Notes: generated by a model not told the origin, from the sequence alone. Counted from the first letter of the stretch, positions 5,021 through 28,944 are shown. The stretch is DNA of 40,453 bases from an uncultured Candidatus Saccharibacteria bacterium (GCA_964459225.1 CAYWKB010000003.1:1-40453), one strand, 5' to 3'. Numbers and translations are program-made.

Positions 5021-5563
5021 TTAATTGGTAATGGTGATGTAATCGTCACTTTGAGTTTCAACAAAATTATTGATGTCATTATTATTAATAAATATTTTGT
5101 AATTTCCTGTTTGAAAATTTGATGGTATTTCCCAAGTATATTTTCCCGTATTTGGAATTGCTGCAATTATATTATTGCATACATAACCATTAATATTTTT
5201 ACACCACATTATATTAATTTTTGATGATCCAAGATTTTTGCTTATCCAGGTAATATTTATTGTATTATCAACCTTGTATGTACCTTTTGAGTTTGGCGAA
5301 GTAATCTTAATAAAAGCTTGAGTAGAAGAAATTGGAAGATCAGCATTACAATGAGGATAATTAGTTGCACCATTAGAGCAGGTTTTTTTATCAGAGGTTA
5401 TTATTGAATCCTTCGCTGTACTTGTTACTATTGGTGATGTTGAACTTACATGTTGTTCTCCATGACAACAATCATAGACTCTAGTAAATGAATTGTAAGC
5501 AACACTTCCTCCAATCACTACTATCACTGCTATAATAATTCCCAAAATAATTTTTTTATTCAT
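5021..5563 (-). CDS. Membrane-anchored surface protein (180 aa): N-terminal TM helix, Ser/Thr-rich linker, Cys motif, C-terminal Ig-like (Ser-Thr-rich GPI-anchored/Kre9-like) domain
   Basis: Hydrophobic IILGIIIAVIVVIGG; CSNGATNYPHC; ITSPN...INITW...NTGKYTWEIP pattern. Confidence 0.7.
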   Translation of the reverse strand: MNKKIILGIIIAVIVVIGGSVAYNSFTRVYDCCHGEQHVSSTSPIVTSTAKDSIITSDKKTCSNGATNYPHCNADLPISSTQAFIKITSPNSKGTYKVDNTINITWISKNLGSSKINIMWCKNINGYVCNNIIAAIPNTGKYTWEIPSNFQTGNYKIFINNNDINNFVETQSDDYITITN

Positions 5564-5584: not shown

Positions 5585-8500
5585 TTACTCAGTCTCTTCG
5601 ACATTGTGAGCTTTTTTGATAAGTTCGACATCAAGTGCTAGACCACGTAATGACTTTAGAAGCACATTAAATGATGCTGGAAGATTTGGTTGCTTTAACT
5701 TTTCTCCCTTAACAATAGAATCAAATGCTTGTGAACGACCTTGTATATCATCTGACTTGATAGTTAGAATTTCACGCAAAGTATGTGCAGCTCCATGACC
5801 CAAAAGTGCCCAGACTTCCATTTCTCCAAATCTCTGTCCTCCTCCTTGTGCCTTTCCTCCAAGAGGCTGTTGAGTAATAAGTGAGTAAGGTCCGATTGAA
5901 CGCATATGTATCTTATCTTCAACCATGTGATGAAGTTTCAGGATATACATATATCCAACTGCAATTGGTCTATCGAATTCTTCACCTGTTCTACCGTCCT
6001 TTAATTTCATTTTTCCACTTGCATCAAAACCTGCTTTTACAAGTTCTTCTTTTATTTCTATATCTGTTGCTCCTGTAAATGGTGGAACTATAGCTTGATA
6101 TCCAAGTGTATGTGCTGCAAGACCAAGGTGTAACTCTAATATCTGTCCTAGGTTCATACGTGAAGGCACTCCGAGTGGTGTCAAAATAACATCCACAGGT
6201 GTTCCATCAGCCATGTATGGCATATCTTCTTCTGGAAGTATTCTTGAAATAACTCCTTTGTTTCCGTGACGTCCTGCAAGCTTGTCTCCGACTGAAACAT
6301 TTCTAAGTTCAGCAACTTCAATGTAAATCTTTTTGATTATTCCTGATTCTAGCTTGTCTCCCTTTTCTCTTGAAAATACTTTAACAGAAATAACACGTCC
6401 GCGCTTTCCTCCTTCCATTCTCTTTGAAGTATCTTTTACATCTCTTGCCTTTTCACCGAAAATTGATCTTAATAGTCTTTCTTCTGGTGTAAGTTGTGTC
6501 TCACCCTTTGGTGAAATCTTACCAACCAAGATATCTCCTGGACGAACCTCAGCTCCAACGCGTACTATTCCGTCTTCTGCTAGATTTTTTAGTTTTGCTT
6601 CTGCAACATTTGGAATATCGCATGTTGTTACTTCTGGACCTAACTTTGTATCACGTACATTAACTACGAATTCTTCGATATTAATTGAACTGAATTTACT
6701 ATTTTTAACTACTCTTTCTGAAAGAATAATAGCGTCTTCATAGTTATTTCCTGACCATGACATAAATGCTACTAGCATGTTTTGTCCTAATGCTATTTCA
6801 CCATTATCTGATGTTGATGTATCTACTAGAACATCACCTTTTTTAACCTTATCTCCTAGATTTACTATTGGTCTTTGATGGAAAGCTGTGAATCCATTTG
6901 TTCTTGAAAAATGAACAAGATTGTATTCCTTTTTACCATTTTTCTTACCTGTAAATACAACTTTATTTGCATCTACATAAGTTATTTCACCGTCTTCTGG
7001 TGCCAATATTATTCTTCCTGTATCTACAACTGCCTTCTTTTCTATTCCTGTTGCAACAAGTGGTGCTTCTGGAATAAGACATGGAGTTGCCTGTCTTTGC
7101 ATGTTTGAACCCATGAGTGCACGGTTTGCATCGTCATGATTTAGGAAAGGAATAAGTGATGTACCTATTGAAAATGCTTGATTTGTTGAAACGTCTATAT
7201 AATCAACTTCACCTGCCTTTGCTAGTCCTGGCTTACCATTTATACGTACTTCAACTTCATCTGCTGTTATCTTTCCTGATTTATCATATGGAATTGCAGC
7301 ATGAGCGATACGGAAGTTTTCTTCCTCTAATGCATTCATATATTGAATTTCATCTGTGACCTTTCCATTTTTAACTTTTGCATATGGAGTTTCAATCATT
7401 CCGAAATCATTTATTCTTGCAAAAGTAGAAAGACGAAGCACAAGTCCAATGTTTGGTCCTTCTGGTGTATGTATTGGACATAGACGACCGTAGTGTGATG
7501 GGTGAACGTCACGAACTTCAAATCCTGCACGCTCTCTTGTAAGACCTCCTGGACCTAGAGCAGTGAGCAATCTTAGATTTTCAATTTCTGAAAGAACATT
7601 TTCCTGTCCCATGAACTGTGAAAGTTGATTTGTTGTGAAAAATTCCTTTATACGAGCTTGAAGTGGTCTTGGGAAAACGAAATTAACAGGCAAAGTAACG
7701 TCTGGCTCAACTGTAGACATTCTGTCCTGAATGTTTCTCTTCATTTGTGTCATACCTACACGTAGTTTTTGCTGTAGCAATTCACCCACATATCTTGCAC
7801 GACGTGATCCTAGATGATCTATATCATCTTCAACTGCATCTGGAGTATTGTTTAGACTTACTATATGAGTAACTATTGTGGCGATATCATCTGCTGATAT
7901 TGTTCTTCTTTCTAATTCCTTTTCATCCATTGATTTATTAAATCTCTTATTGAAACGGAATCTACCAACTTTATTGATATCATATCTATCAGGATGGAAT
8001 ATATTTCCAATAAATTCACGTGCATTATCTGCTGTAGCCAAGTCTCCATCTCTTAATCTCTTGTGTATTTCGATATATGCATCATCAACTGTCTTTGCAT
8101 GATCCTTTGCAAGTGTTAGCTCTACTGCCTTTTTTGCCAATTCATCACCTTTAAAGAATTCAAGTATTGAAGCATCAGTATTTGCTCCGAGTATTCTCAT
8201 TAGAGTTGTGATCGGGAATTTCCTCTTTCTATCTATACGTACATATACTGTTCCATCAGAATCTGACTCTATTTCCATCCAAACACCGCGAGCTGGGATG
8301 ATTTTTGCGCCAAAAAGATTTTTACCCTTTGTTTCATTAAGAGTGAAGAAAATACCGAATGATCTTGCAAGTTGTGCAACAATAACTCTTTCAATACCAT
8401 TTATAATGAAAGTTCCGTGATCTGTCATCAAAGGTAAATCAGCAAGGAACATTTCCTGCTCTTTTGTTGAATCTAAAAGCTTATTGCGAAGCTTTACCTT

Positions 8501-8761
8501 TACCTTTATTTGTCCCTCATATGATAGCTTATTTGTCTTTGCATAATGCTCATCATATTTTGGTCTTGTGAGTTCAAAACCAGAAAAAGAAAGTTCGAAT
8601 TTCTTTCCGGCATAGTCTTTTATAGGTGAAAATTCCTTTAAGACCTCTCCTATACCCTGCTCTATTAATGTATTAAATGATGTTATCTGTGACTCGACGA
8701 GATTTGGCATCTCTGTGAGTGGATCCTTGAAACGACTAAAATACTTTTTTGTTATATGCAT
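5585..8761 (-). CDS. rpoB: DNA-directed RNA polymerase beta subunit (1058 aa, compact)
   Basis: GDKLAGRHGNKG, RALMGSNMQRQA, GGQRFGEMEVWAL, HYGRLCPIHTPEG. Confidence 0.99.
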   Translation of the reverse strand: MHITKKYFSRFKDPLTEMPNLVESQITSFNTLIEQGIGEVLKEFSPIKDYAGKKFELSFSGFELTRPKYDEHYAKTNKLSYEGQIKVKVKLRNKLLDSTKEQEMFLADLPLMTDHGTFIINGIERVIVAQLARSFGIFFTLNETKGKNLFGAKIIPARGVWMEIESDSDGTVYVRIDRKRKFPITTLMRILGANTDASILEFFKGDELAKKAVELTLAKDHAKTVDDAYIEIHKRLRDGDLATADNAREFIGNIFHPDRYDINKVGRFRFNKRFNKSMDEKELERRTISADDIATIVTHIVSLNNTPDAVEDDIDHLGSRRARYVGELLQQKLRVGMTQMKRNIQDRMSTVEPDVTLPVNFVFPRPLQARIKEFFTTNQLSQFMGQENVLSEIENLRLLTALGPGGLTRERAGFEVRDVHPSHYGRLCPIHTPEGPNIGLVLRLSTFARINDFGMIETPYAKVKNGKVTDEIQYMNALEEENFRIAHAAIPYDKSGKITADEVEVRINGKPGLAKAGEVDYIDVSTNQAFSIGTSLIPFLNHDDANRALMGSNMQRQATPCLIPEAPLVATGIEKKAVVDTGRIILAPEDGEITYVDANKVVFTGKKNGKKEYNLVHFSRTNGFTAFHQRPIVNLGDKVKKGDVLVDTSTSDNGEIALGQNMLVAFMSWSGNNYEDAIILSERVVKNSKFSSINIEEFVVNVRDTKLGPEVTTCDIPNVAEAKLKNLAEDGIVRVGAEVRPGDILVGKISPKGETQLTPEERLLRSIFGEKARDVKDTSKRMEGGKRGRVISVKVFSREKGDKLESGIIKKIYIEVAELRNVSVGDKLAGRHGNKGVISRILPEEDMPYMADGTPVDVILTPLGVPSRMNLGQILELHLGLAAHTLGYQAIVPPFTGATDIEIKEELVKAGFDASGKMKLKDGRTGEEFDRPIAVGYMYILKLHHMVEDKIHMRSIGPYSLITQQPLGGKAQGGGQRFGEMEVWALLGHGAAHTLREILTIKSDDIQGRSQAFDSIVKGEKLKQPNLPASFNVLLKSLRGLALDVELIKKAHNVEETE

Positions 8762-9537: not shown

Positions 9538-10257
9538 CTATTTACCAAGAAATACTTTCTCCAAAACTTTATTTTCCATTAACTCCTTTGGATTTCCTTC
9601 TGCATAGACCTTACCTTTATCTAGCACATATGCTCGCTTAGTAATTTCAAGTAGAGATTTCAGATTATGTTCAACAACTAATATAGCTGTTTTTCTACGT
9701 TCATTTATCTCTCGTATTTTTTCGAAAACTTCCTTTACAATTTTTGGTGCAAGACCAAGAGATGGTTCATCTAGTAAAAGCACTTTAGGATCTGGCATCA
9801 GTCCACGGGCTATAGCGAGCATTTGCTGTTGACCCCCAGAAAGACTACCAGACTTAGCTTTGAGTTTTGATTTTAGAATTGGAAACAATTCGAGTACATT
9901 CGCAATTCTTTCTTTTCTATCTGCACTACTTTTTATATTGAATCCGCCGATTTCAAGATTTTCAAGTACAGTTAAATGATGAAAAACTCTACGACCTTGC
10001 GGTACAAATGATACTCCACGTTCTACAACTTCATAAGATACTGGTTTAAATGATTGCCCTTGCCAGAAGATCTCTCCAGAATCAATAGTAGCTAGACCAA
10101 AAATCGTCTTCAATATAGTTGATTTACCTGCACCATTTGGACCCATAAGAGCAACAATTTCACCCTCATCTATAGAGACTGATGCACCATCTAATGCTTT
10201 TACACCAGAGTAGTGAACATGTATATTTTTCAAGTGTAATAATGTTTCAGTTTTCAT
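9538..10257 (-). CDS. livF: Branched-chain amino acid ABC transporter ATP-binding protein LivF
   Basis: Walker A GPNGAGKST, VPQGRRVF, LSGGQQQMLAIAR, LLLDEPSLGLAP. Confidence 0.93.
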   Translation of the reverse strand: MKTETLLHLKNIHVHYSGVKALDGASVSIDEGEIVALMGPNGAGKSTILKTIFGLATIDSGEIFWQGQSFKPVSYEVVERGVSFVPQGRRVFHHLTVLENLEIGGFNIKSSADRKERIANVLELFPILKSKLKAKSGSLSGGQQQMLAIARGLMPDPKVLLLDEPSLGLAPKIVKEVFEKIREINERRKTAILVVEHNLKSLLEITKRAYVLDKGKVYAEGNPKELMENKVLEKVFLGK

Positions 10258-10294
10258 AAATATTTATCATACACCTATGATATCATTTCTCTTT

Positions 10295-11356
10295 TTACTC
10301 TTCCAATTTAACAAATTTACCATCAATGTAATTATGAATTTCAGATATGGTTGGTCGAGTGCCGTTTTTATCGAAATATATGTCACCAGATACACCAGAA
10401 TATGAGAAGTTGTTATTTAAAAGATCAATCCATTTATTCTTGTTTTCTGATGAAAGCTTCTTGATTATTTGCACAACATCATATCCATAATCTGTTGCAA
10501 AACCAGAGTCGACTAAATAAGTTTTTTTATATTCATCATTGAATTCCAGAGTTCTTGTATTTGCCATAACAACTGAAATACATTTATTCAATGATTGCAT
10601 TCCAACTGCTTCGATATATTGATTCACCACAACAACAACATTCATATCACAAATTGGTTGTGGTTTATTATTATATTTTGATAATTCTTTTAAAAGTTTA
10701 ATACCCGATTCTAATGGTACAAAAATTGTAAAAGCATCAACTTCAGATGTAACAACTTTTTTAGCTTCAATTCGCATATCAGATGATGAAATAACTGGAA
10801 ATTCTTTGATAACAGTTGTGCTTGCAACACCTTCTAGAAACAATTTATGATTATTTACAAATAAAGTGTTATCTTTAGCATATACAACAGCTATTGTGTT
10901 ATATCGTTTAGATGCCTCCTCACCAAGTCTTGTAAATAATCCTGTCCCTTGTGGCATTATTTGAAATACATTATCTCTATCATGTGATAGTTCATCACCC
11001 AAAATGAACATTATATCTTTATTTTTATTAATTAATGGTTTTATAATTTCAATTGTTGGTGAACTTATACTCACAATAATATCTACACTATCCAAATCTA
11101 CTAGTTTTCGATATGCAGACAAACCTGTTTTTGCATCGTATTTATCATCTTCAAAAATAAATTGAATTTCGGTTGAACTGTTGTTACTTAATTTCATTGC
11201 ATTACGAATTCCTTCACCTATAGATGCATACTGCCCACTTAAAGGAAGTATTACACCAACCCGTATTGTGTCTGATTTTGATTTATCGTTAATTCTAATA
11301 GCGACAAACATTGCAACAAAAATAAATATAACTGTAAGTATTGTTTTTTTCTTCAT
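10295..11356 (-). CDS. LivK-like (type 1 periplasmic binding fold) substrate-binding protein, paralog 4
   Basis: N-terminal TM anchor, IRVGVILPLSG, FEDDKYD, GVSGDIYFDKNG; ATG at 11356 preferred over ORF-track start 11392. Confidence 0.85.
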   Translation of the reverse strand: MKKKTILTVIFIFVAMFVAIRINDKSKSDTIRVGVILPLSGQYASIGEGIRNAMKLSNNSSTEIQFIFEDDKYDAKTGLSAYRKLVDLDSVDIIVSISSPTIEIIKPLINKNKDIMFILGDELSHDRDNVFQIMPQGTGLFTRLGEEASKRYNTIAVVYAKDNTLFVNNHKLFLEGVASTTVIKEFPVISSSDMRIEAKKVVTSEVDAFTIFVPLESGIKLLKELSKYNNKPQPICDMNVVVVVNQYIEAVGMQSLNKCISVVMANTRTLEFNDEYKKTYLVDSGFATDYGYDVVQIIKKLSSENKNKWIDLLNNNFSYSGVSGDIYFDKNGTRPTISEIHNYIDGKFVKLEE

Positions 11357-11472
11357 AAAACTAACATTACACTCTATTTTTTTTAATTTCAATTTTCCTT
11401 AAATTTTAATAAATAAATACTATAAATATTTAATGGCAAGCCTTAATATAGCCATTTTCTAAAAATTAAAAC

Positions 11473-11501
11473 TTGACTAAAAAGTAGTCAGGTTCTATCA
11501 T
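11473..11501 (+). promoter_or_regulatory. Promoter of TrmB-1 with an overlapping palindromic operator candidate
   Basis: TTGACT (11473-78) - 17 nt - TATCAT (11496-501); inverted repeat TGACTA-N5-TAGTCA (11474-11490); ATG at 11511 implies a nearly leaderless mRNA. Confidence 0.65.
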
Positions 11502-11510
11502 ACAATTAAT

Positions 11511-12284
11511 ATGGATAATAAAAAAATACCGCAAGCTATCAGTACTATATTAGGTCTATCAAGGCAGGAGAATGCAATACTATCGGCAATTTCTGATATG
11601 GCTAAGCAAATTTCTACAATTGCAAGATTAACAAAGCTCCCCCGTACTTCATTACTCTATATACTCAAGAATCTAGAAAAAAGGAATTTGGTTAAACCGA
11701 TCAAAATCAATAAACATAAGTATTGGAAATCTAATACGATAAATGCATTTCGAATGCTTAGAAATGCAACACCCGAAATCATTGTTCACAACGGAATACC
11801 TGAAATTTTGAACATTTTCGAAAGACTTGCAAATCAACCATTCAATTCTCGTATAAGGGCAATTCAACCAGATAATTCCATAAAATATGCCCTAAGGAAA
11901 GTCCCTGTTAAATTTCTTTATTCAATTAATACAGCTATTAAGGATAATAAATATATTTTTGAAGGTATTGTACATGAAAAATCTGTTAGTACTATAATTT
12001 CTGAACTCGGAAGGAGTGATGCGAAAAAGATTTATAATAGTTTTATTGGACGTTTAGAAGATTATGTCAAAATTCCTAGTGACTTCGCTAATGTTGAGTC
12101 TGAGATATATATATTTGGCGCATCAGCATACATTATAAATTGGAATAGAGAAATTGGTTTAGAAATAAATAATAAAGATATTGTTGAACTTTTAATAGCA
12201 ATGTTCTCCTGTGTAAAAGAGCTTGGAACAAGATACAATCAGTACAAAGAAATGGAAGCTACTCTCCCAAATACGATTCAATAA
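11511..12284 (+). CDS. TrmB-family transcriptional regulator 1
   Basis: N-terminal wHTH (ILGLSRQE...IARLTKLPRTSLLYILKNLEKRNLV) plus C-terminal effector-type domain; divergent from LivK paralog 4; 3' end overlaps livG by 26 nt. Confidence 0.8.
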   Translation: MDNKKIPQAISTILGLSRQENAILSAISDMAKQISTIARLTKLPRTSLLYILKNLEKRNLVKPIKINKHKYWKSNTINAFRMLRNATPEIIVHNGIPEILNIFERLANQPFNSRIRAIQPDNSIKYALRKVPVKFLYSINTAIKDNKYIFEGIVHEKSVSTIISELGRSDAKKIYNSFIGRLEDYVKIPSDFANVESEIYIFGASAYIINWNREIGLEINNKDIVELLIAMFSCVKELGTRYNQYKEMEATLPNTIQ

Positions 12285-13011
12285 CATTCTTTCTTTGAAG
12301 AATTTCATCAGGCTTTCCTTCAGCAAGAATCTCCCCTGAATCGAGTACATATAAATAATCAGATAATTCTCTAATAAGATCCATGTTATGCTCTATAAGT
12401 ATAACTGCTTTACCTTTATCTCGTAATTCTTTCATAACTGATGCAACAATCTTGATCATTTCAGGAAACATTCCAGCGAAAGGCTCATCTAGAAAAATAA
12501 TATTTAAATCACCAACGCCACCATGAGTCATGGCAAGTACACGAGCTATTTCAAGAAGCTTACGCTGTCCGTATGAAAGATTTTTAGCTAGCTCATTTCG
12601 TTTCTCCCATAACCCAACTTTTTTCAAAACTTCTTCAGATTTTTCTAGATGAAAAGCTCCATGTTTTTCAAATAGTGATTTCCAAATACTTCTTTCTGTA
12701 AGTACTACGAGAATATTATCTATAACCGGCATCTGTTCGAACAATTTAACATCTTGAAATGTTCTTGTTATACCGAGCAGTGGTACTTCGTGTGCTCTCA
12801 CAAGTTGCAATCGTTCTACACCAGCTATTATAACTTCCCCAGAATCAATTGGAATCATTCCTGTAAGAATATTTATAAGTGTAGATTTACCTGAACCATT
12901 TGGACCAATAATACCGGTTATTTCACCGGCACTAAAATCAATTGATAACTTATTTACCGCATAGACGCCATCGAAGTGTTTAGATATTTGTTTTGTTTCA
13001 AGAATTGACAT
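12259..13011 (-). CDS. livG: Branched-chain amino acid ABC transporter ATP-binding protein LivG
   Basis: GPNGSGKST, GITRTFQ, LSYGQRKLLEIAR, LDEPFAG; ATG at 13011 preferred. Confidence 0.9.
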   Translation of the reverse strand: MSILETKQISKHFDGVYAVNKLSIDFSAGEITGIIGPNGSGKSTLINILTGMIPIDSGEVIIAGVERLQLVRAHEVPLLGITRTFQDVKLFEQMPVIDNILVVLTERSIWKSLFEKHGAFHLEKSEEVLKKVGLWEKRNELAKNLSYGQRKLLEIARVLAMTHGGVGDLNIIFLDEPFAGMFPEMIKIVASVMKELRDKGKAVILIEHNMDLIRELSDYLYVLDSGEILAEGKPDEILQRKNVIESYLGE

Positions 13012-13055
13012 ATGTATACATTTTTCCACATTTTTGGTATTTAGTAAACAAAACC

Positions 13056-13081
13056 GCGCAGTCAGCCGAAGCTAACTGCAC
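13056..13081 (-). terminator. Terminator between LivK paralog 3 and livG
   Basis: Minus strand GTGCAGTTAGC-TTCG-GCTGACTGCGC followed by GGTTTTG. Confidence 0.7.
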
Positions 13082-13136
13082 GTAGTGATGCTGAGTTCCT
13101 GTACTCAACCAAAATTTAGTACACCAATATAAATTC

Positions 13137-14231
13137 TTACTTACTGAAAGATCCCCTAGGTAGTTCTCCATTTATAATTTCTCCTATATGTACCTTAGGA
13201 GTCCTAAGTCCATTCTCATTAAAAATAATCTCTCCACTAGCTCCCTGCATCTTTATTTTCTGGATATTTTCTATCCATTTCTTATTATCAACATCATAAG
13301 CCTTCATTAAAATATTAAATGAATCATAACCTATTGACGCACCAATTCCAGGCTCACTTCCATATTTATTTTTATAAGAAGTAATGAAATCTTGTTTATC
13401 ATTATCACCAACTGTAACCATGGCAATTGAACCATTGAGCGGTTGAAAACTTCCAAGAACTGATTTTATCTCCTTTTCGCCAGTTTGTATGTCTTGGTCA
13501 AAAACAAATACTAGTGGAGATTTTGATTGTTGTTTAGCCTCTTTGACAATTATGGCTGCATGTTGAGGTATAGTAAACAAAACAATTGCATCAGGTCTTT
13601 CAGTTAATAATTTTAAGACATCAGTTCTTACATCCCTACTAGAAGAATCAACCTTAATTATCGTTGCTCCATCTCCATACCCCTCAATAAAAGCATTCGC
13701 AAAGTTTGTCCATGCTTCAATATTTTGTGCGGTTACTATGGCTACTTTTTTATATCCCTTATTCTTGACATATTCTCCTAGTTTAACTTGAGCCGGTACA
13801 CTACTTGGCCAAATCTGAAATATATTGTCTTTTTCAGGAGCTTTACTCTGCTCAAAACCTTGTATAAAAGGTTTATCAGTCTTATGTACTAGATCGTATA
13901 CAGCATCTACAGTAAAAGTTGTCATATTTATTAATGCATCTACATTATCAACAGATGAAAGCTTTTGATAGGCAGAAAGCCCTTTTTTAGCATCAAAGCC
14001 ATCATTCTCAGCTATCATTACAATTGATTGATCTGGATATAACGTCATCCATTGTTCTTTCGCTAGTTCAACACCTTTATTATAATTTTCACCCACAACC
14101 GCGTAGTCTCCTGTAGTTCCAGATATCAAACCGATTTTAACATCGAGGGATTCAGATTTATTCTGAAAAAAGTAGATCCCAAATACTATAACTAAGATAC
14201 TAATAATAATTGCTATTAATTTTTTATTCAT
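13137..14231 (-). CDS. LivK-like substrate-binding protein, paralog 3
   Basis: TM anchor, VKIGLISGTTG, ENDGFD, GASGEIIFNENG; alternative start at 14237. Confidence 0.85.
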   Translation of the reverse strand: MNKKLIAIIISILVIVFGIYFFQNKSESLDVKIGLISGTTGDYAVVGENYNKGVELAKEQWMTLYPDQSIVMIAENDGFDAKKGLSAYQKLSSVDNVDALINMTTFTVDAVYDLVHKTDKPFIQGFEQSKAPEKDNIFQIWPSSVPAQVKLGEYVKNKGYKKVAIVTAQNIEAWTNFANAFIEGYGDGATIIKVDSSSRDVRTDVLKLLTERPDAIVLFTIPQHAAIIVKEAKQQSKSPLVFVFDQDIQTGEKEIKSVLGSFQPLNGSIAMVTVGDNDKQDFITSYKNKYGSEPGIGASIGYDSFNILMKAYDVDNKKWIENIQKIKMQGASGEIIFNENGLRTPKVHIGEIINGELPRGSFSK

Positions 14232-14387
14232 ATGCACAAGTATAGTACAAGTTCACATTTATGTCATTCTTATTAGTAATTATAATTTATATATATAATA
14301 TTATATGAATATAGATAAGGATTATTTAGAATTCTACAAAATATCATCAGAATTGCTGATATTTTATAGTTATGATAGAAATAGTGT

Positions 14388-15122
14388 ATGGAAAAAATAA
14401 TTATCACACTGAATCAGTCTGGTTTTACAAACAAGGAAGCGACTGTTTATACAGCTCTTTTATCGTGTGGGACTGCATCTGCTTACACAATTGCCGAAAA
14501 AACAGGCCTAAAACCTTCTACAACTTATTTAATTTTACAAAATTTAATTCAAAAAAACTTTATATACTCCATACCTAGAGCAAAGAAAAAACTTTTTTCA
14601 GCTCGTGATCCTAAAGATATAGTATCGGAAATCGAAAAAAAAGCAGCGCAAGCAAAAAAAATATTACCAGCAATGCTTGCTTTAATTCCTGCAGAAACAT
14701 TGAAAATCAAAATCAAATATTATCAAGGCCTAAGTGGAATCGAAGAATCACTTAACTATAGTCAAAAACATAGTATACCAACTAGTGAGGTTGTCGGCTT
14801 CTATGCGAGTGCTGAAAATGTTCCAGAAGAATATATTGAAATGTCTAAAAAGTTTATGCATGATCTTAAAAAAAGAAATATTAAAGTAAGAGGAATAACA
14901 CCCGAGCATCGATCTATAGAAGAAATGAAAATGATTCATGAAATGCTTGGTCATTCACTAAGAACAATTCCATACAAAGATTACTCCGCTCAAACATCGA
15001 TTGAAGCAGAAGATAGTATTGTTAGAGTGATTTTGAATCATGAAGAAAAAGCAATCGTTATTGAGAATATTGAATTAGCAAAAATGGTTAAACAAATATT
15101 TGAGATGGTTTGGAAAAAATAA
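14388..15122 (+). CDS. TrmB-family transcriptional regulator 2
   Basis: GFTNKEATVYTALLSCG...IAEKTGLKPSTTYLILQNLIQKNFI wHTH; C-terminal ...QIFEMVW typical of this family. Confidence 0.88.
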   Translation: MEKIIITLNQSGFTNKEATVYTALLSCGTASAYTIAEKTGLKPSTTYLILQNLIQKNFIYSIPRAKKKLFSARDPKDIVSEIEKKAAQAKKILPAMLALIPAETLKIKIKYYQGLSGIEESLNYSQKHSIPTSEVVGFYASAENVPEEYIEMSKKFMHDLKKRNIKVRGITPEHRSIEEMKMIHEMLGHSLRTIPYKDYSAQTSIEAEDSIVRVILNHEEKAIVIENIELAKMVKQIFEMVWKK

Positions 15123-15125
15123 TTA

Positions 15126-16229
15126 TTATAGCCCATACTCTACCGCCACCCCATTCTTTATAACCTGAATCTCCACTGGCACATTCTCTACTGCATGATC
15201 TACAGTAAACTTTATTACTCCGTTTGGAGTTGTAAATTTATTCTTTGATATATATTCAGCTACTTTAGTCTGGTCTGTTGAATTCGCAATAGAATTTACT
15301 AGGACATACACAGCATCAAAATACTTGTCAGCAGATTTTGTTGGTTCAATACCATATTCATTTTTATATAATTTTATAAACTCTTCACTTGATACTTCCC
15401 AATTCAAAATAACAACACCTTCTAGAAGACTCTTATCGGCTTGTTCAGCAAATGAATCATTTATACCATTGTAACTTATTATTTTCGGATTAAATCCAAG
15501 TTGTCTTGATTGAACAAGGAAATTAATTGGGTCATTACCCACCATATCTAGAAATACAGCATCTACCTTTTGTGATTTCAACTTTGTAATAGTTGTTCTG
15601 AAATTATTGTAACCTATTTGTGCGTATTCTTCATTGATAATTCCTACTCGACCATTCTCTTTCATAACACCATCTAATGTCTTAGCGATTTCATTTCCAA
15701 AAGTAGATTTGAAGTGCACTACGGCGAGTTTATTTATATTTTCCTTTTTAATATAAATCTTGAGTTCACGTATCACTTTATTAAAGTCAGTTAGCATTAC
15801 AAAACTCTGATCGTTTAATTCAAAACCATCAGAGATACGGAAATTGGAACCAGAAATGAATGCTAGGTTATTACTTTGTGCAAGTGGAATTAGTGGTTGT
15901 GCAGTAAAGTCGAATACTCCCCCAATAACTCCCTGAACCTTATCCAGATTAACTAATTTATTATATGCAGAAACCGCATCCTTGCCCTCGGTATGATCAT
16001 CTTCTATGATAAGTTCTACTTTTCTACCATTTATACCTCCATTATTATTTATATTTTTTACTGCAAGCTCCATGCCATTTTTTGCATATTCTCCCCAAGG
16101 TGCAGCAAAACCAGTCAAAGAAACCACCGCTCCAATCTTAATGGATTCATTTGAATACTTATTACTATTGAATGAAACACCAACTACAATTAATATAATA
16201 ATTATGACTGCTATTGTTATTTTTTTCAT
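15126..16229 (-). CDS. LivK-like substrate-binding protein, paralog 2
   Basis: TM anchor, IKIGAVVSLTG, GGINGRKVELIIEDD; ATG at 16229 preferred over 16316. Confidence 0.88.
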   Translation of the reverse strand: MKKITIAVIIIILIVVGVSFNSNKYSNESIKIGAVVSLTGFAAPWGEYAKNGMELAVKNINNNGGINGRKVELIIEDDHTEGKDAVSAYNKLVNLDKVQGVIGGVFDFTAQPLIPLAQSNNLAFISGSNFRISDGFELNDQSFVMLTDFNKVIRELKIYIKKENINKLAVVHFKSTFGNEIAKTLDGVMKENGRVGIINEEYAQIGYNNFRTTITKLKSQKVDAVFLDMVGNDPINFLVQSRQLGFNPKIISYNGINDSFAEQADKSLLEGVVILNWEVSSEEFIKLYKNEYGIEPTKSADKYFDAVYVLVNSIANSTDQTKVAEYISKNKFTTPNGVIKFTVDHAVENVPVEIQVIKNGVAVEYGL

Positions 16230-16230
16230 A

Positions 16231-16259
16231 TTGACATAAGTATACATGATTGTTAGTAT
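16231..16259 (+). promoter_or_regulatory. Promoter of TrmB-3
   Basis: TTGACA (16231-36) - 17 nt - TAGTAT (16254-59), with an extended TGn. Confidence 0.65.
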
Positions 16260-16290
16260 ATGTACATAATTCGGCGAAAAGCGAATAATT

Positions 16291-17058
16291 ATGATAAATA
16301 ACGATTTTCTAAGCATATTAGGATTAAAGCCAGTACCTCAAAGAGTATTACTGGACATAGTTAAACATGGAACTTCCAAAGTTACTGATATATCATTGCG
16401 TCTGAATATGCCCAAATCTTCAATTTACGATGCCCTATCAATACTTGTAAGCAATAGTTTGATTAATGAATACAGCGACGATAGAGGAAAAACATTTGGA
16501 ATTTCAGACAAAGAACAATTAGCCAGAGTACATAATGATAAGGTTGAGGAATTAAAAAAAGCCCATTCCTCCCTACTCACTTTCATACATAGTAATGTAA
16601 AGGAAGAATCAGTAGCTAAACCTAAAATTAAATTTTACTCAGGAGTAATTGGTATAAAGCAAGCATTTCGTGATATTCCATGGAATAGTAAATATACTGA
16701 AACTTATATGTTATGGCCAACAAGAGAGATGATTGATATTGATGAAGCATTCTTTAAATGGCATGGATCACAAAGATTTAAGTATAATGTTTTTATATAT
16801 GCAATTGAAAAACATGACGATAGAAAACTACAGAACAAAAATCATGAATGGCTAAAAAATGACAAGATTAAAAATCTTGTAGATGTGAGATATCTTCCGA
16901 AGGGTGTGGACTGTAAAATGAGTTACTGGATATATGGAAATACATGCTTATTTGCAAGTGGTGGAAAAGAGAAAATTGCATTTACAATTCACAGTAAAGA
17001 GTTTTGTGAGATTATGAAGCTGATGTGGGAACAACTGTGGAAAGTATCAAAAAAATAG
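16291..17058 (+). CDS. TrmB-family transcriptional regulator 3
   Basis: wHTH (ILGLKPVPQRVLLDIVKHG...ISLRLNMPKSSIYDALSIL), KIKFYSG linker, C-terminal ...MWEQLW. Confidence 0.85.
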   Translation: MINNDFLSILGLKPVPQRVLLDIVKHGTSKVTDISLRLNMPKSSIYDALSILVSNSLINEYSDDRGKTFGISDKEQLARVHNDKVEELKKAHSSLLTFIHSNVKEESVAKPKIKFYSGVIGIKQAFRDIPWNSKYTETYMLWPTREMIDIDEAFFKWHGSQRFKYNVFIYAIEKHDDRKLQNKNHEWLKNDKIKNLVDVRYLPKGVDCKMSYWIYGNTCLFASGGKEKIAFTIHSKEFCEIMKLMWEQLWKVSKK

Positions 17059-17066
17059 TTAGGTAT

Positions 17067-17933
17067 CTACAGTCTATACTCCCCCACCAACCCCTGTGGT
17101 CTATAGAGCATGAGCAATATCAGTATTAGACCATAAGTCACCTGCCTCATCTGCGCCGCGATATCTGAGGGAAATCCGATAAATCGCAAAATTTCTGGTA
17201 GAAGGATTAAACAAATTGCACCAACTATCGCTCCTTTGTTATTTGCCAATCCACCTAGAATAATAATTGCAAGAATAAAAATAGATTCTGTCAGAGAGAA
17301 TGACGATGGGTCAATAAAACTGATATAACTTGCAAATAATGATCCCGCGACAGCAGCCATACTAGCACCAATTACAAAGATTGCCAGTTTGTACCAAATT
17401 GTTCTATAACCAAACACTGATATAGCTTGCTCATCTTCACGAATCGCTTTTAACACCCTGCCGAAAGATGAATTAGTGATGAGTCGACATATTAAATAGA
17501 TCAAAAATAAAAAAACAATTGAGAGTACTAGAAACCAGATATTTTCAGAAAAAGTAAAACCAAGAAGTGATGGTCTTGGTATGCCCGGTATACCTAAAGG
17601 TCCTCGAGTTAATGATTGCCAATTCAAAAATATACTATATATAATCACGTTGAAACCAAATGAGCCAAGAGCGTAGTAGTCATCTCTAAATTTTGAGAGA
17701 ACAAGTCCAATTACAAAACTACACACTGCCGTAATGATGATCCCAATTATCAAAGCCATAAAAAAATTAATCTCTGTAGATGTAAGGAGTATCGCAGTAG
17801 CATAAGCACCCATTCCATAAAAAGCTGCCTGAGTCACACTAAGAAGACCTGTATAGCCGACTATCAGATTTAAAGAAAGACCGAGTATTCCGTAGATAGA
17901 GATGAGTATAGCGATGTGAATAAAATATTCCAT
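17067..17933 (-). CDS. livM: Branched-chain amino acid ABC transporter permease LivM
   Basis: SLNLIVGYTGLLS...AFYGMGAY, LTRGPLGIPGIPRP, FGRVLKAIREDE. Confidence 0.92.
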   Translation of the reverse strand: MEYFIHIAILISIYGILGLSLNLIVGYTGLLSVTQAAFYGMGAYATAILLTSTEINFFMALIIGIIITAVCSFVIGLVLSKFRDDYYALGSFGFNVIIYSIFLNWQSLTRGPLGIPGIPRPSLLGFTFSENIWFLVLSIVFLFLIYLICRLITNSSFGRVLKAIREDEQAISVFGYRTIWYKLAIFVIGASMAAVAGSLFASYISFIDPSSFSLTESIFILAIIILGGLANNKGAIVGAICLILLPEILRFIGFPSDIAAQMRQVTYGLILILLMLYRPQGLVGEYRL

Positions 17934-17934
17934 A

Positions 17935-18801
17935 TTATTTTTTTAATATTCCTTGCGGTCTGAATAATAGAAATAAAATTAGTACAATAAAAGCTATAGT
18001 ATCCTTCCATTCACCAGAGATTTGCCATATCCCAAAGTTTTCGATAAAAGCAAGAAAAAATGCACCGATAACCCCACCATAAACATTTCCAATACCTCCA
18101 ATAATACAAGCAATCACTCCTTTCAAAAGCAGAGAGAGACCCATTGTCGGTTCTATACCAGTATCAAAACCGATCAATATCCCAGCGAGACCTCCGATAG
18201 CAGAGCCGATGAAAAATACCCAGCCAATAATTTTCTCCGTATTTATACCAACAATTTTTGAAACTTCTTCATCATCCCCTATCGCCTTAACAGCTTTGCC
18301 AAAGATCGTATACTTGAATACCAAACCAATTATTATCATTATGAGTAGTGTTGTAATGAGGGTGATGATTTGAGTCTGAGTGATCACACCGCCAAATATA
18401 TCAAATATGCGATCCGATCCAGAATTTCGAGCTAATGTCTGAAATTGGCTTGTAAACAGAATTGCAATAATCGCCTGCATAGCAGTAAGAACACCTAGAG
18501 CCGCGACAAGAAGAACCATTCCAGATGATTTACGCTCACGTAATGGTGAATACACTAATTTGTAGACTATAAATCCTATAATACCAGAGATAGCGAGGCC
18601 CAAAATAATAGATAGATACATGTCCTGTCCAAGCGTTTTATAGAAATAGAACACAGAATATCCACCAACAGCAGTCAATGCACCATATCCTAGATCAAAG
18701 AATTTGGTTGTGCCATAGATCAAATTAAAACCAACAGCGATCATGGAGTAAATTGCTCCAGCGATGATACTATTTAAAATTAATTGTGGAAGAATTTCCA
18801 T
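17935..18801 (-). CDS. livH: Branched-chain amino acid ABC transporter permease LivH
   Basis: QLILNSIIAGAIYSMIAVGFNLIYG, FGKAVKAIGDD, LLFRPQGI. Confidence 0.92.
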   Translation of the reverse strand: MEILPQLILNSIIAGAIYSMIAVGFNLIYGTTKFFDLGYGALTAVGGYSVFYFYKTLGQDMYLSIILGLAISGIIGFIVYKLVYSPLRERKSSGMVLLVAALGVLTAMQAIIAILFTSQFQTLARNSGSDRIFDIFGGVITQTQIITLITTLLIMIIIGLVFKYTIFGKAVKAIGDDEEVSKIVGINTEKIIGWVFFIGSAIGGLAGILIGFDTGIEPTMGLSLLLKGVIACIIGGIGNVYGGVIGAFFLAFIENFGIWQISGEWKDTIAFIVLILFLLFRPQGILKK

Positions 18802-18806
18802 TTAGA

Positions 18807-19919
18807 CTATTTTATTTCGATAGCTTGTCCATCTTTGATTCTTTTAACGACATAGCTAACATGGACTATGTCACCATTATTATCGAAACTTATTGGACCT
18901 GAAGCTCCATCAAAACTCAAATTATGTAGGAATTCTGACACTTCATCGGGGTCTGTTCCAACTGCTTTGAATGCTTTAAATAATGCATCTGCAGCGTCGT
19001 ATGCCTGTGGTGCACATATTGCAATTTCATCGTTTGGAATCTTAGCGCTTAGTTTACTCCTAAACTTATCGGTTGGGGATGCAGATGATCCAATATAAAT
19101 TATATCTGCATTTCTATTTACTCCCCTGACAAATTTTGGATCACTCCAAGCATCGGCACCAAGAATTTTAACTTTTATATTCAAATCCTGTAACTGTTGA
19201 GTTGCAACTAATGCTCCATCAGTGTACATAGGCATATATAAATAATCTGGACTTTCCGCCTTTACCTTTGATAACTGAGTCTTGTAGTCGCGAACTTCAG
19301 ATGCAGTACCCTCAGTCAAAACAACCCTTCCACCCAATTCGATAAACCTCTTATTGAAAACGTCCTTTATGCCAGTTCCCCAGTCGCTTATGTGATACAA
19401 GATCGCAACATTACGGGCATTGAGTGTATTATATGCATATTCTGCAGCATACTTACCTTGATACGCATCAGATGGATAATCTCGGAAAAAATATTTTCCA
19501 GACCCAGTTAGATTTGGAGCCGATGAACAATATGCAATTGTTGGCACTTTTGCGTCCATAGCTAACTTTACAAAAGCAGAAGTTTCCGATGAACATAGTC
19601 CACCGACAATGGCAGTCACCTTATCAATATTTATCATTTTCTGAGCGGCGCTTACGGCAGCCGCTGGGGTGCATTTAGTATCTTCATAAATTGCTTCTAC
19701 TTTTCTACCATTGATACCTCCGAATTGATTTATTTCCTCAACTGCAACCTCAACAGCGGCCTTACTTACGTTTCCAAGAGAAGCAACATCTCCAGTCAAA
19801 GGTCCGATGAATCCAATTTTTATGGGTCCAGTATCGTCTTTATCCCCACCTAAAGTAACAAGCAATGTAATCACAATCATCGCAACTAAAAATACTATAA
19901 TCTTCGCGTTTTTTGACAT
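18807..19919 (-). CDS. livK: Branched-chain amino acid ABC transporter substrate-binding protein (operon-proximal LivK)
   Basis: IKIGFIGPLTG, GGINGRKVEAIYED, GGLCSSET, SSAPNLT, FDGASGPISFDNNGD; 5 nt upstream of livH. Confidence 0.9.
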   Translation of the reverse strand: MSKNAKIIVFLVAMIVITLLVTLGGDKDDTGPIKIGFIGPLTGDVASLGNVSKAAVEVAVEEINQFGGINGRKVEAIYEDTKCTPAAAVSAAQKMINIDKVTAIVGGLCSSETSAFVKLAMDAKVPTIAYCSSAPNLTGSGKYFFRDYPSDAYQGKYAAEYAYNTLNARNVAILYHISDWGTGIKDVFNKRFIELGGRVVLTEGTASEVRDYKTQLSKVKAESPDYLYMPMYTDGALVATQQLQDLNIKVKILGADAWSDPKFVRGVNRNADIIYIGSSASPTDKFRSKLSAKIPNDEIAICAPQAYDAADALFKAFKAVGTDPDEVSEFLHNLSFDGASGPISFDNNGDIVHVSYVVKRIKDGQAIEIK

Positions 19920-20010
19920 GATCTTAAGTTATTTTGTAATATCTAAATATTATCACATTTGCACCCACATTATCAATTTACTCTATCACATAAAAACTAT
20001 TAAGATTTAA

Positions 20011-22725: not shown

Positions 22726-23346
22726 TTACTCAATCTCCACCATCACCTCATTTCTTGTCATCCATGGTGGTGTCCAAGGTGCATTATATCCTGCATATTT
22801 TGGTTCTCCTTTTATTTTCACATTATCATTTTTCAAAATATTCAATAACTTTTCCTTGTTTTTCATCACAGATGAATCACTTCTATACCAACCAAATCTA
22901 AGTACTGCCATTTTCATTTCATTAACTTTTACTATTTTTATTCTACTATCATTTGGTTTTGGAAGTGTTTCTAATGTATATGAGCTTGGCATTACAAATA
23001 CTACCGTATGTGATTCGCCATCTATAGTTGCAAGCACTGGTGTTGTCATCGCTATCTTTTCTGATTGTTGTTTGCTTTCAAGTACGGGAGTGGTCATTGC
23101 TATACTTTCCTTTTTCGTATTATTACCAAAAATAAAATTAGCAATTAAACGAAAACCTTCATTTAATGCATTGTCGTAACTACCATTCACCACAGTTTCT
23201 GCAACTATATGTTCAGCGTATTTTCTTATTTCATAATCATTTTTAACTTCCAATACTGTATACTTTGCTTTTTCAGCTTTTGAAGAAAAGTATCCGTATA
23301 TAGACCAGATTATTAATATTATTAAAATTATGTAAATTATTTTCAT
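22726..23346 (-). CDS. SOUL heme-binding family protein
   Basis: GFRLIANFIFGNN, duplicated IAMTTPV, YNAPWTPPWMTRNEV. Confidence 0.9.
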   Translation of the reverse strand: MKIIYIILIILIIWSIYGYFSSKAEKAKYTVLEVKNDYEIRKYAEHIVAETVVNGSYDNALNEGFRLIANFIFGNNTKKESIAMTTPVLESKQQSEKIAMTTPVLATIDGESHTVVFVMPSSYTLETLPKPNDSRIKIVKVNEMKMAVLRFGWYRSDSSVMKNKEKLLNILKNDNVKIKGEPKYAGYNAPWTPPWMTRNEVMVEIE

Positions 23347-23379
23347 GTATTAAATATAGCATGGAATTTAAAAGGGAAA

Positions 23380-23404
23380 GGGGCCATCCAGTTCGGATGA
23401 CCCC
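23380..23404 (-). terminator. Hairpin downstream of the DGR-target-like gene (terminator and/or DGR cis hairpin)
   Basis: Minus strand GGGGTCATCC-GAACT-GGATGGCCCC then TTTCCCTTTT; preceded by a (C/T)TTGA-repeat spacer (23415-23460). Confidence 0.7.
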
Positions 23405-23462
23405 AATTTTGGGAACTCAAGAATCAAATACTCAAAAGATTCAAGAATTCAAGGTGCAAGTA

Positions 23463-24392
23463 TCACTTGTTCTGCGGGGAGAAACCCGACGCAGAACCGT
23501 AGAAGTCGTTCGCATAGTCAACAACGCTCGTGTCGAACCTGAGCTCGTCGTCGCCGAAGTAGAAGATCGGAGACCCCGAGAAGACGCCAACGCCAACGGG
23601 CGAGAATTCATCTCCTGGAGTGTCGATGTAGAGGTCGTCGTAGTGTTCAAGACGATTGGGATGCGTGAGAAGCATGGAACCGACAGCGAAAGTGCCGAGA
23701 CCAGCTTCACCTGCAGTATCCCCAATAATGACACGAGCACGACGGACGGAACGTCCACGATGGCGAATGCCGAACTGGGCAGGCACGAGGAGGATATCGG
23801 CGTCGCCTTGCGCTTCCGCAAGGTTCTTCCAGAAGTCCTCGCTCTTTGCCGACTGGCGGAGGTGCTTCTCATCAATCGCGCCGTCGCGATAATTGTAGAA
23901 GCGACCCTTGCGGGTTTCCGATAGGGTGTTGAGGATTTTCTGCACCGCCGAGCTGTAGATCGAACCGAAAATCTTCGGATTCTTCTTCCAGTTCGGAATG
24001 GCAAACCATCCTTCGGCGTTCTCGGGGAGCTTGGCTTCGCCTTTTTCGATCTGTGTGAGCAGTTCTTGATTGGCGTAGCCGAGACCCGAGAACAATTCGC
24101 GCAGACGATTGGTCTGTTCAACAATCCCCAAGGGCTTGTAGCCCGAAAGGTAACCGTAGCTCGATTCGACTTCTTCATCACTATATTCATGGCGATGGCG
24201 GTGCTCCTCAATAAACTCTGCGAGGAGATCACCTGCGCCCGCAGCTTCATTTACGCGTTGGGCTTCGTCCTCAGAGAGGCCGGCCTTGTTATAGGCGGCT
24301 TCGAGAATGGACATGAACTGCAATCCTTTCGGATCGCGGACGGTGACTTTGGCTGAACTAACAACTGCAACTGACGGCTCCAATGTTTTCAT
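23463..24392 (-). CDS. Probable DGR target protein with a C-terminal CLec-like variable region
   Basis: GC-rich gene; C-terminus GDEFSP...FYFGDDELRFDTSVVDYANDFYGSASGFSPQ resembles CPR DGR targets; ATG at 24392 follows an AAGGA RBS (alternative start 24401). Confidence 0.75.
   Translation of the reverse strand: MKTLEPSVAVVSSAKVTVRDPKGLQFMSILEAAYNKAGLSEDEAQRVNEAAGAGDLLAEFIEEHRHRHEYSDEEVESSYGYLSGYKPLGIVEQTNRLRELFSGLGYANQELLTQIEKGEAKLPENAEGWFAIPNWKKNPKIFGSIYSSAVQKILNTLSETRKGRFYNYRDGAIDEKHLRQSAKSEDFWKNLAEAQGDADILLVPAQFGIRHRGRSVRRARVIIGDTAGEAGLGTFAVGSMLLTHPNRLEHYDDLYIDTPGDEFSPVGVGVFSGSPIFYFGDDELRFDTSVVDYANDFYGSASGFSPQNK
23472..23615 (-). repeat. Putative variable region (VR); boundaries approximate
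   Basis: 3'-terminal ~47 codons dominated by NNC/NNT codons (GTT GGC GTT GGC GTC TTC...), as expected of mutated AAC/AAT sites; no cognate TR in the window. Confidence 0.55.
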
Positions 24393-28128: not shown

Positions 28129-28276
28129 AATTATTCTCCATGGTTGGTTGTTTACTCAATGTGCTTAACTCTATGAACCTTCGACTTCTGTCGTTGGCTC
28201 AATGAAGTGGAGGAAGTGTTTTAAGTTTCCTCCATTTTGGACGATGTTTATAGGTAATCGTCTCACTACCTTTTTA

Positions 28277-28756: not shown

Positions 28757-28851
28757 CTTTTTCTATTTTCTCTTTTCTCTTTTGAAGTACTTGTCGGATG
28801 TTTTCAGAGCCCGACATTTGACTCTCAGAACTTAATTTATTCTCTTTTCTA

Positions 28852-28880
28852 AATCTAGCGTATCAGAACACAAAAGTCAA
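28852..28880 (-). promoter_or_regulatory. sigma70 promoter for the 28756 gene
   Basis: TTGACT (28880-75) - 17 nt - TAGATT (28857-52). Confidence 0.6.
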
Positions 28881-28944
28881 GGTGTGTCTATGGTTACCTT
28901 AATAAGAAAAGTCCGCTAGTTTTCACTGCAAATTCACAATAACA

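Follow-up and report, generated by a model that had tools for sequence, protein, structure and literature searches.

A LIV-type importer locus with three head-to-head pairs of TrmBL2-like regulator and receptor genes in a bacterium of the candidate phyla radiation

How one importer might be served by four receptors, three of which are encoded opposite a regulator gene of their own, is the question raised by positions 9538-19919 of a 40,453-nucleotide stretch of DNA (GCA_964459225.1, CAYWKB010000003.1:1-40453; hereafter "the window") from an uncultured Candidatus Saccharibacteria bacterium. The segment would represent the sole HAAT/LIV-type ATP-binding cassette (ABC) importer locus of a tiny-genome member of the candidate phyla radiation (CPR; Paceibacteria) sampled in a bioreactor metagenome, and the reading considered reasonably probable is that of one importer with four receptors and three TrmBL2-like local regulators, each with its own palindrome. 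All coordinates refer to the whole window, in which open reading frames (ORFs) were called and then matched against Pfam and NCBIfam profiles.

According to ORF calling and Pfam, the segment is composed of eleven long ORFs, whose order and strands are those given in a preliminary description of this DNA. On the minus strand, livK (18807-19919; Peripla_BP_6; NF011933, 149 bits; best match a LIV binding protein) is the first gene of the series livK-livH-livM and is followed by the two permease genes, livH (17935-18801; BPD_transp_2, 148 bits) and livM (17067-17933; BPD_transp_2, 165 bits; NF008450 LivM). The ATPase genes livG (12259-13029; ABC_tran and BCA_ABC_TP_C; LivG/UrtD-like; likely start ATG at 13011) and livF (9538-10257; ABC_tran, 124 bits; LivF/UrtE-like) lie further along the same strand. 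With LivH and LivM (BPD_transp_2), a LivG carrying the BCA_ABC_TP_C tail, and LivF, the gene set of a HAAT importer (LIV-type, TC 3.A.1.4) is complete, and the 40-kb window contains a single permease pair and a single LivG/LivF pair. In NCBIfam, the transporter parts are nearest to LIV and urea systems and none reaches the equivalog cut-off, so they are family members and not named orthologues.

Three additional, divergent type-I substrate-binding proteins (SBPs) are encoded on the minus strand: SBP2 (15126-16229; Peripla_BP_6, 157 bits; 25% identity to LivK), whose gene forms a transcription unit of its own, SBP3 (13137-14231; Peripla_BP_6, 89.5 bits), which has an N-terminal membrane helix, and SBP4 (10295-11356; Peripla_BP_6, 74.8 bits; 31% identity to SBP3). 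For SBP2 and SBP4, the longest ORF extends too far upstream; the preferred starts at 16229 (MKKITIA) and 11356 (MKKKTIL) give both proteins an N-terminal membrane helix of the kind seen in LivK and SBP3. As the preliminary description had proposed and the ORF coordinates confirm, each of these genes stands head-to-head with a TrmB gene on the plus strand, namely TrmB3 (16291-17058) with SBP2, TrmB2 (14388-15122) with SBP3, and TrmB1 (11511-12284) with SBP4. With the likelier ATG starts, the spacers measure about 61 nt, 156 nt, and 154 nt, respectively, and the tail-to-tail gaps are 8 nt between TrmB3 and livM, 3 nt between TrmB2 and SBP2, and -26 nt between TrmB1 and livG.

Such pairs are found well beyond the window. 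GTDB species genomes were scanned with TrmB2, TrmB3, and TrmB1 as queries, and ORFs were classed by hidden Markov models made from the window's proteins, which yielded 33 head-to-head TrmB-SBP pairs in 20 non-redundant Patescibacteria loci (individual loci are cited below by L numbers). The paired loci come from metagenome-assembled genomes (MAGs) labelled Taylorbacteria, Paceibacterota, Magasanikiibacteriota, Gracilibacteria, and others. Similarity among the regulators parallels similarity among the receptors (Mantel r 0.81, reached by 0 of 2000 permutations), and clustering joins TrmB3 with SBP2 in 11 of 11 cases, TrmB2 with one SBP class in 8 of 8, and TrmB1 with the SBP4 class in 4 of 5; at least two further regulator/receptor classes are absent from the window. 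All TrmB2 orthologues (55-62% identity) are head-to-head with a Peripla_BP_6 gene, and all TrmB3 orthologues (58-78% identity) are paired with an SBP2 orthologue (44-76%), so that the two co-diverge. More distant relatives of TrmB2, at 35-41% identity, adjoin unrelated genes. A reciprocal search starting from SBP2 found a divergent TrmB gene in 18 of 21 assessable CPR loci and in 0 of about 27 proteobacterial and actinobacterial loci, where a plain SBP-ATPase-ATPase-permease-permease operon is present instead. Looking for divergent TrmB/type-1 SBP pairs across CPR genomes had been suggested beforehand as a check, together with the view that the repeated TrmB-SBP unit is a recurring module; both the recurrence and the conserved adjacency were found. 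In a contig of a MAG labelled Woesearchaeota (DPANN; PCYA01000014.1, L087, 1724-5077), two TrmB-like genes lie beside a binding protein 30% identical to SBP2; either a gene exchange linking CPR and DPANN or an error of binning could account for this.

Each regulator class is also accompanied by a palindrome of its own. Across 705 kb of fetched loci searched with three class motifs, each motif lies directly upstream of its own regulator class with one exception (L061), in 13, 8, and 4 loci for classes 3, 2, and 1, respectively, and each palindrome occurs once in the window. The class-3 palindrome ATTCGGCGAAAAGCGAAT (ATTCG-N8-CGAAT; 16269-16286) is GC-rich, forms part of the TrmB3 leader, where the predicted transcript start precedes it by a few bases, and abuts the putative -35 element of SBP2. 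In its 13 loci it is always just upstream of a TrmB3-class gene and it is present nowhere else in the 705 kb; the pattern alone is not above chance in the window, and its weight comes from conservation across genomes. The whole 61-nt spacer of the TrmB3 class is conserved, and it holds overlapping divergent promoter-like sites (16231-16266; TTGACA-17-TAGTAT on the plus strand for TrmB3 and TGTACA-16-TATACT on the minus strand for SBP2), whose hexamers are conserved in L003 and L011.

The class-2 palindrome ATCATCAgaatTGCTGAT (14343-14360) overlaps the putative -35 element (TTGCTG) of the TrmB2 promoter. The corresponding conserved block, ATCATCAgaatTG(A/C)TGAT, which has 7-bp arms and a 4-bp spacer, is the sole conserved block in six TrmB2-class spacers, keeps a constant position relative to the TrmB2 ATG (-47 to -28) in the window and in L001, L003, L010, L011/L047, and L040, and overlaps a promoter-like arrangement of the TTG(A/C)TG-17-TAGAAA type. 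The class-1 palindrome TGACTAaaaagTAGTCA (11474-11490) overlaps the promoter-like TTGACT-17-TATCAT of TrmB1 (11473-11501), the -35 region being embedded in TGACTA-N5-TAGTCA, and it is unique in the window, where 0.10 copies are expected. In L045 and L057 the class-1 site reads TGACCA-N5-TGGTCA, a matched change in both arms. Locus L061 has one class-1 copy at its TrmB gene and a second, perfect palindrome, TGACTAAATTTTAGTCA (3648-3664), which precedes by about 98 nt an SBP gene (2474-3550) without a regulator gene beside it; by estimate, about 0.001 such sites are expected in that locus by chance.

These positions lead to a proposal for how the pairs would work. Each TrmBL2-like protein most likely binds its own palindrome as a dimer at its own promoter and represses itself, and it would also determine how strongly the divergent receptor promoter is used. 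Of these two roles, autoregulation has good support. In classes 1 and 2, autorepression is suggested by the sequence because the palindrome covers the regulator's own -35 element; the class-3 site could block the transcript of TrmB3 itself and act on the adjacent SBP2 promoter. Only for the TrmB3-SBP2 pair does the geometry point to control of the neighbouring receptor; for SBP3 and SBP4, such control is inferred from the fact that the divergent arrangement is conserved and from the second site in L061, and not from sites at their own promoters. Other promoter-like sites are consensus matches only, namely those of livK (19949-19976, minus strand; TTGATA-16-GATAAT with TG) and SBP3 (14239-14267, minus strand; ATGACA-17-TATACT). 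For SBP3 and SBP2, the best promoter-like hexamers are separated from the ATG by just 7 and 9 nt, respectively (14231-14267, with the ATG at 14231, and 16229-16266, minus strand), and the two mRNAs are possibly leaderless or near-leaderless. No riboswitch, T-box, or other known RNA element was detected in the intergenic regions at Rfam gathering thresholds, and the window has two tRNAs only.

The family membership of the regulators was assessed by profile and by structure. Matches to the winged helix of PF01978, whose curated cut-off is 25.6 bits, cover the N-terminal 60-70 residues of the three plus-strand proteins, with TrmB2 (50.3 bits) and TrmB3 (33.1 bits) above the cut-off and TrmB1 (23.4 bits) below it. 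TrmB1 is placed in the TrmB family because profile-profile comparison with HHalign aligns its full length to the TrmB2-family profile with 94.7% probability; the value for TrmB3 is 97.4%, and the three proteins are full-length homologues with barely detectable pairwise similarity. The AlphaFold2 model of TrmB2, built with 32 homologues, is confident (mean predicted local distance difference test, pLDDT, 91); in it, a helix of 24 residues joins the winged helix and an alpha/beta domain. Foldseek matches it in the PDB to TrmBL2 (5bpd/5bqt/5box, E ~1e-13) and to Pyrococcus furiosus TrmB (3qph, E 3e-9), and matches its C-terminal domain to proteins of the phospholipase-D fold (PLD-like); a profile search of the PDB also reaches 3qph (E 3e-8) and 5bqt. 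The TM-scores to solved TrmB and TrmBL2 structures are only 0.34-0.40, with the domains oriented differently.

In TrmBL2, which has 264 amino acids, the C-terminal stretch of roughly 70 residues with the sugar-binding site of TrmB is missing (PMC4158304), an architecture that the 244-257 residues of TrmB1, TrmB2, and TrmB3 match. On the model and the profiles, the three regulators are TrmBL2-like, with a winged helix, a long helix, and a PLD-like domain and without the known ligand-binding subdomain of TrmB. The only candidate sensor is the PLD-like domain. The TrmB2 profile collects 8213 cluster representatives at E<=1e-10, and the homologues of TrmB2 all come from Patescibacteria-type metagenome contigs. 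In some Patescibacteria contigs, TrmBL2-like genes cluster without any binding-protein gene (five within 12.7 kb in L029 and three in L006), and other members of the family adjoin TIM/PGK or ORF6N antirepressor-like genes; the family therefore has wider roles.

On the receptor side, the SBPs share 21-31% identity, and the SBP and TrmB paralogues are old. LivK has 4gnr, 3td9, and LivJ (1z15) as PDB matches (E 1e-32 to 3e-28). Its alignment with 1z15 retains L77-C78-S79 and Y202 and has the conservative replacements of T102 by S, Y150 by W, and E226 by D; S79, T102, Y150, Y202, and E226 are ligand residues of LivJ. LivK is a canonical LIV-type, membrane-anchored substrate-binding protein in which the amino-acid-binding residues are kept. 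In SBP2, SBP3, and SBP4 the S79 loop is changed and the equivalent of Y202 is lost, in an alignment that is approximate at 21-26% identity; the replacement of GGLCSSET in LivK by GGVFDFTA (SBP2), -NMTTFTV (SBP3), and -SISSPTI (SBP4), noted in the preliminary description, is reproduced with MAFFT. The residues that contact the amino acid in LivJ are found in LivK alone, and the three paralogues, which share the fold, have diverged and lack part of this residue set.

The AlphaFold2 model of SBP3 (pLDDT 89) shows an intact fold of two lobes with an N-terminal membrane helix. Its best structural matches include the aromatic-acid binders of Rhodopseudomonas palustris (cluster-B, Peripla_BP_6; RPA0668, 4ey3, and 4eyg, for hydroxybenzoate/vanillate) as well as LIV, keto-acid, and urea binders, so the fold accepts many ligand classes. 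Unlike SBP3, the R. palustris binders have no dedicated TrmB-type partner described, and the identity to them is 14-22%, so no ligand is transferred from them. Assignment of a ligand from structure was rejected, since Foldseek scores amino-acid, aromatic-acid, keto-acid, and urea binders about equally for SBP3. The four specificities and the possible host-derived ligands of the preliminary description would be conjectures. Pseudogenisation, which had been named in advance as a finding that would speak against a functional system, was rejected as well: the reading frames are uninterrupted, conserved orthologues exist, SBP3 gives a confident model, and the ratios of nonsynonymous to synonymous substitution rates (dN/dS) to the closest orthologues are 0.079 for SBP2, 0.085 for SBP3 (against L064), about 0.08 for TrmB3, and 0.17 for TrmB1, rough values in that the synonymous rate is saturated. 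All four genes are by this measure under purifying selection.

The translocator of LivH, LivM, LivG, and LivF probably serves all four membrane-anchored receptors, whose ligands would differ. A different use of the extra SBPs, as surface receptors for sensing or for attachment to host cells that do not feed LivHMGF and have the TrmB protein as dedicated regulator, is considered clearly improbable. It would suit the SBP N-terminal helix, which looks uncleaved, the incomplete LivJ residue set of the paralogues, and two orphan TrmB-SBP pairs (L001 and L010) that have no transporter genes within 10 kb and keep both the pairing and the palindrome. However, membrane anchoring is usual for binding proteins in the absence of an outer membrane, orphan SBPs with a distant translocator are well known (LivJ is an example), the SBPs are interleaved with permease and ATPase genes in most loci, and in the window SBP3 and SBP4 lead directly into livG and livF.

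This last feature bears on how the importer genes are expressed. Orientation divides the genes into the units livK-livH-livM, SBP2, SBP3(-livG), and SBP4-livF. Between SBP3 and livG lies a hairpin (13055-13082, minus strand) with a 12-bp stem containing 7 GC pairs, a UUCG loop, and a T-rich tail (folding free energy -23.2 kcal/mol, z -3.95), which is a predicted terminator or attenuator. Because it leaves at most about 43 nt before livG, the latter probably depends on read-through or has a weak promoter of its own; read-through is common after binding-protein genes. The livF gene starts 37 nt past SBP4. The notion of a constant permease/ATPase core with add-on cassettes, put forward in the preliminary description, did not hold, since with livG behind the SBP3 hairpin and livF directly after SBP4 the ATPase genes are embedded in cassette units and do not form a separate core. 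For the same reason, the regulator switches probably also gate the supply of both ATPases. The 3' ends of TrmB1 and livG are convergent and overlap by 26 nt (12259-12284), and a convergent overlap of 16-26 nt between a TrmB1-class gene and livG is kept in L045, L057, L061, L070, L071, and L074; it is a possible site of transcriptional interference.

The pairs are conserved as a type and vary as individuals. The closest homologues of the window's SBP3 (81, 69, and 67% identity, in L064, L062, and L063) have no adjacent TrmB gene, so the pairing is not strict. Elsewhere, the SBPs that partner TrmB2 orthologues are 57-69% identical to one another and only 38-41% identical to the window's SBP3; because they form a different subgroup, the receptor on the TrmB2 side has been exchanged in this lineage, a swapped partnership in which the regulator, the palindrome, and the downstream livG stayed. 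Co-duplication of regulator and receptor, which had been proposed as a check, is hence upheld for TrmB3 and SBP2, which co-diverge, and rejected in its strict form for TrmB2 and SBP3. In L064, where the homologue nearest to the window's SBP3 is encoded, genes resembling those of phage tails (Collar domains, Amidase_2; 1558-3978) lie a few kb from the TrmB-SBP-livH-livM-SBP3 locus.

Loss and movement are evident, too. At L062 6636-6836, only the last 67 residues of a TrmB3 orthologue (70% identity) are left, convergent with livM and in the same position as in the window, and the rest of that liv locus contains no other TrmB gene and no operator motif; the remnant looks like a decayed cassette. 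In L003, L046, L048, and L063, livH is separated from livM by a cassette, and the number of SBPs per locus ranges from 4 to more than 10. The LIV locus thus presents itself, from these comparisons, as a hotspot of cassette gain, loss, movement, and re-partnering, and the TrmB-SBP unit is heritable but plastic, being gained, moved, re-partnered, and lost among relatives. The variable positions, the L062 remnant, and the high SBP numbers would also fit an arrangement that arose incidentally, as genes of a hypervariable locus duplicated and recombined rapidly, with cassettes in flux or decaying and no coherent design. The dN/dS of about 0.08 for SBP2, SBP3, and TrmB3, the conservation of the operators across regulators that are only 50-60% identical, and the co-divergence of TrmB3 and SBP2 make this explanation very unlikely.

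Several observations weigh against the proposed local regulators with receptor genes as their targets. The exchange of partner means that a strict ligand-matched logic of regulator and receptor cannot hold for TrmB2 and SBP3. No match to PF11495, the TrmB effector domain with the sugar-binding subdomain, was found in TrmB1, TrmB2, or TrmB3 at E<=0.01. In classes 1 and 2, about 85-120 nt separate the start of the SBP gene from the palindrome, which is located at the promoter of the regulator itself, and no second operator near the SBP3 and SBP4 promoters was found by k-mers in six orthologous spacers or by mismatch searches in the window; beyond the main palindrome, the k-mer comparison of the six spacers returned only AT-rich half-site-like words at about -105. 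The promoter scan gave 67 consensus sites against 55.5 expected from shuffles and is not enriched, so single promoter calls are suggestions, which gain strength if relatives share the hexamers. In L056, a TrmB3-like gene and the motif are present without any SBP, family members at 35-47% identity adjoin unrelated genes (RNase Y besides TIM/PGK and ORF6N), and the sequencing runs that contain the locus are DNA runs of a bioreactor metagenome only. TrmBL2 itself is an abundant chromatin-like protein on coding and intergenic DNA and a global repressor (PMC4158304).

On these grounds, the TrmB-like proteins could be autoregulated with their real targets elsewhere, or coat DNA broadly as TrmBL2 does, with the SBP adjacency being inherited synteny that implies no regulation of the receptor. 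The closest fold, the palindromes at the regulators' own promoters, the L056 regulator, the neighbours of the more distant family members, and the swapped SBP partner are all in keeping with that explanation, which is nevertheless judged unlikely. The head-to-head position with an SBP gene is kept in the 33 pairs and in the 18 of 21 reciprocal loci despite extensive rearrangement around them, and the orphan pairs of L001 and L010 persist together. In addition, the class-3 site abuts the SBP2 -35 element, a second class-1 site precedes another SBP gene in L061, and the motifs are unique in the window and not dispersed.

Local regulation of one importer with several receptors has partial counterparts among known systems. 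The nearest of them, the TrmB of Thermococcus litoralis and Pyrococcus furiosus, lies inside a trehalose/maltose ABC cluster and represses malE via the palindrome TACT-N3-AGTA (PMC4158304). Like the regulators of the window, it is a PF01978 regulator encoded inside an importer cluster, between membrane and ATPase genes (malE-malF-malG-treT-trmB-malK), the Tyr of its recognition helix is present in all three, and it acts via a palindrome at the promoter of a binding-protein gene, the window's palindromes being candidate sites of this kind. It differs in that the host is archaeal and not a CPR bacterium, in its 338 residues with a C-terminal sugar-binding subdomain against 244-257 without it, and in its transporter, which is of the CUT1 type with MalE instead of HAAT/LIV with type-I (Peripla_BP_6) receptors; the window, moreover, has the head-to-head orientation and three regulator classes with three palindromes in one locus. 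TrmBL2 (PF0496/TK0471, Thermococcales), the best structural match (E 1e-13), shares the class of about 260 amino acids and the succession of winged helix-turn-helix, long helix, and PLD-like domain without a sugar-binding subdomain. Unlike it, the window's regulators have class-specific palindromes once per locus and a fixed gene partner, and the sequences are no more than about 16% identical.

That receptors of different specificity share one translocator is a classical finding, as with LivJ and LivK of E. coli on LivHMGF (and HisJ and ArgT on HisQMP). There, too, at least one binding-protein gene forms a separate transcription unit, and the contact residues of LivJ are those kept in the window's LivK. 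The E. coli LivJ and LivK units answer to the global regulator Lrp, whereas the window has four receptors, three with a regulator gene of their own, and ATPase genes split between receptor units. No paper combining TrmB with Patescibacteria/CPR or with bacterial LIV-type binding proteins was found in the literature searched, which agrees with the earlier suggestion of an undescribed system. What is new is the occurrence in bacteria (CPR), the association with type-I receptors of the LIV family, the presence of several regulator classes with distinct putative operators in one locus, the modular turnover of regulator/receptor pairs, and, as far as can be read from sequence, the apparent use of a TrmBL2-type architecture as a site-specific local regulator. 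These are variations on known themes and are not surprising in principle.

Elsewhere in the window, a 180-residue ORF with a Kre9/KNH-like Ig-like domain (5021-5563, minus strand; PF10342, E 1e-7) separates rpoB (5585-8761) and rpoC (1320-4997), which are normally adjacent. Near the window end, a 338-residue reverse transcriptase (38620-39636, minus strand; RVT_1, E 2e-27) could be part of a group II intron, a retron, or a diversity-generating retroelement. The G+C fraction rises to 0.45 and 0.43 at 23001-24000 and 28001-29000, compared with about 0.33 elsewhere; ORFs overlap there on both strands and have no Pfam match, and no Rfam match was found in these two intervals.

CPR/Patescibacteria cannot make most amino acids and rely on uptake, and to our knowledge almost nothing is known about gene regulation in them. 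A wider reading, tentative and rather doubtful, is that the TrmBL2-like proteins of CPR, and perhaps of DPANN, make up a major family of transcription factors that act locally and respond to nutrients, and that the triplets are exchangeable plug-in modules. Under this same doubtful reading, a minimal genome with a single LIV-type translocator would re-tune its scavenging via triplets of regulator, operator, and receptor, the PLD-like domain would sense an imported compound or metabolite at a site unlike that of archaeal TrmB, and, with the ATPase genes under these switches too, the activity of the importer as a whole would be coupled to the signals. More immediately, the locus offers defined, predicted regulator-operator pairs, three in the window and, in the clade, at least five classes. 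Each has a predicted target, and none requires a culture of the organism, since in vitro assays or a heterologous host would serve. If the PLD-like domain is indeed the sensor, the known ligand-sensing modes of the TrmB family would be extended. The LIV locus is a hotspot of receptor diversification in Paceibacteria, and this diversity may indicate which compounds the cells obtain from hosts or from their surroundings.

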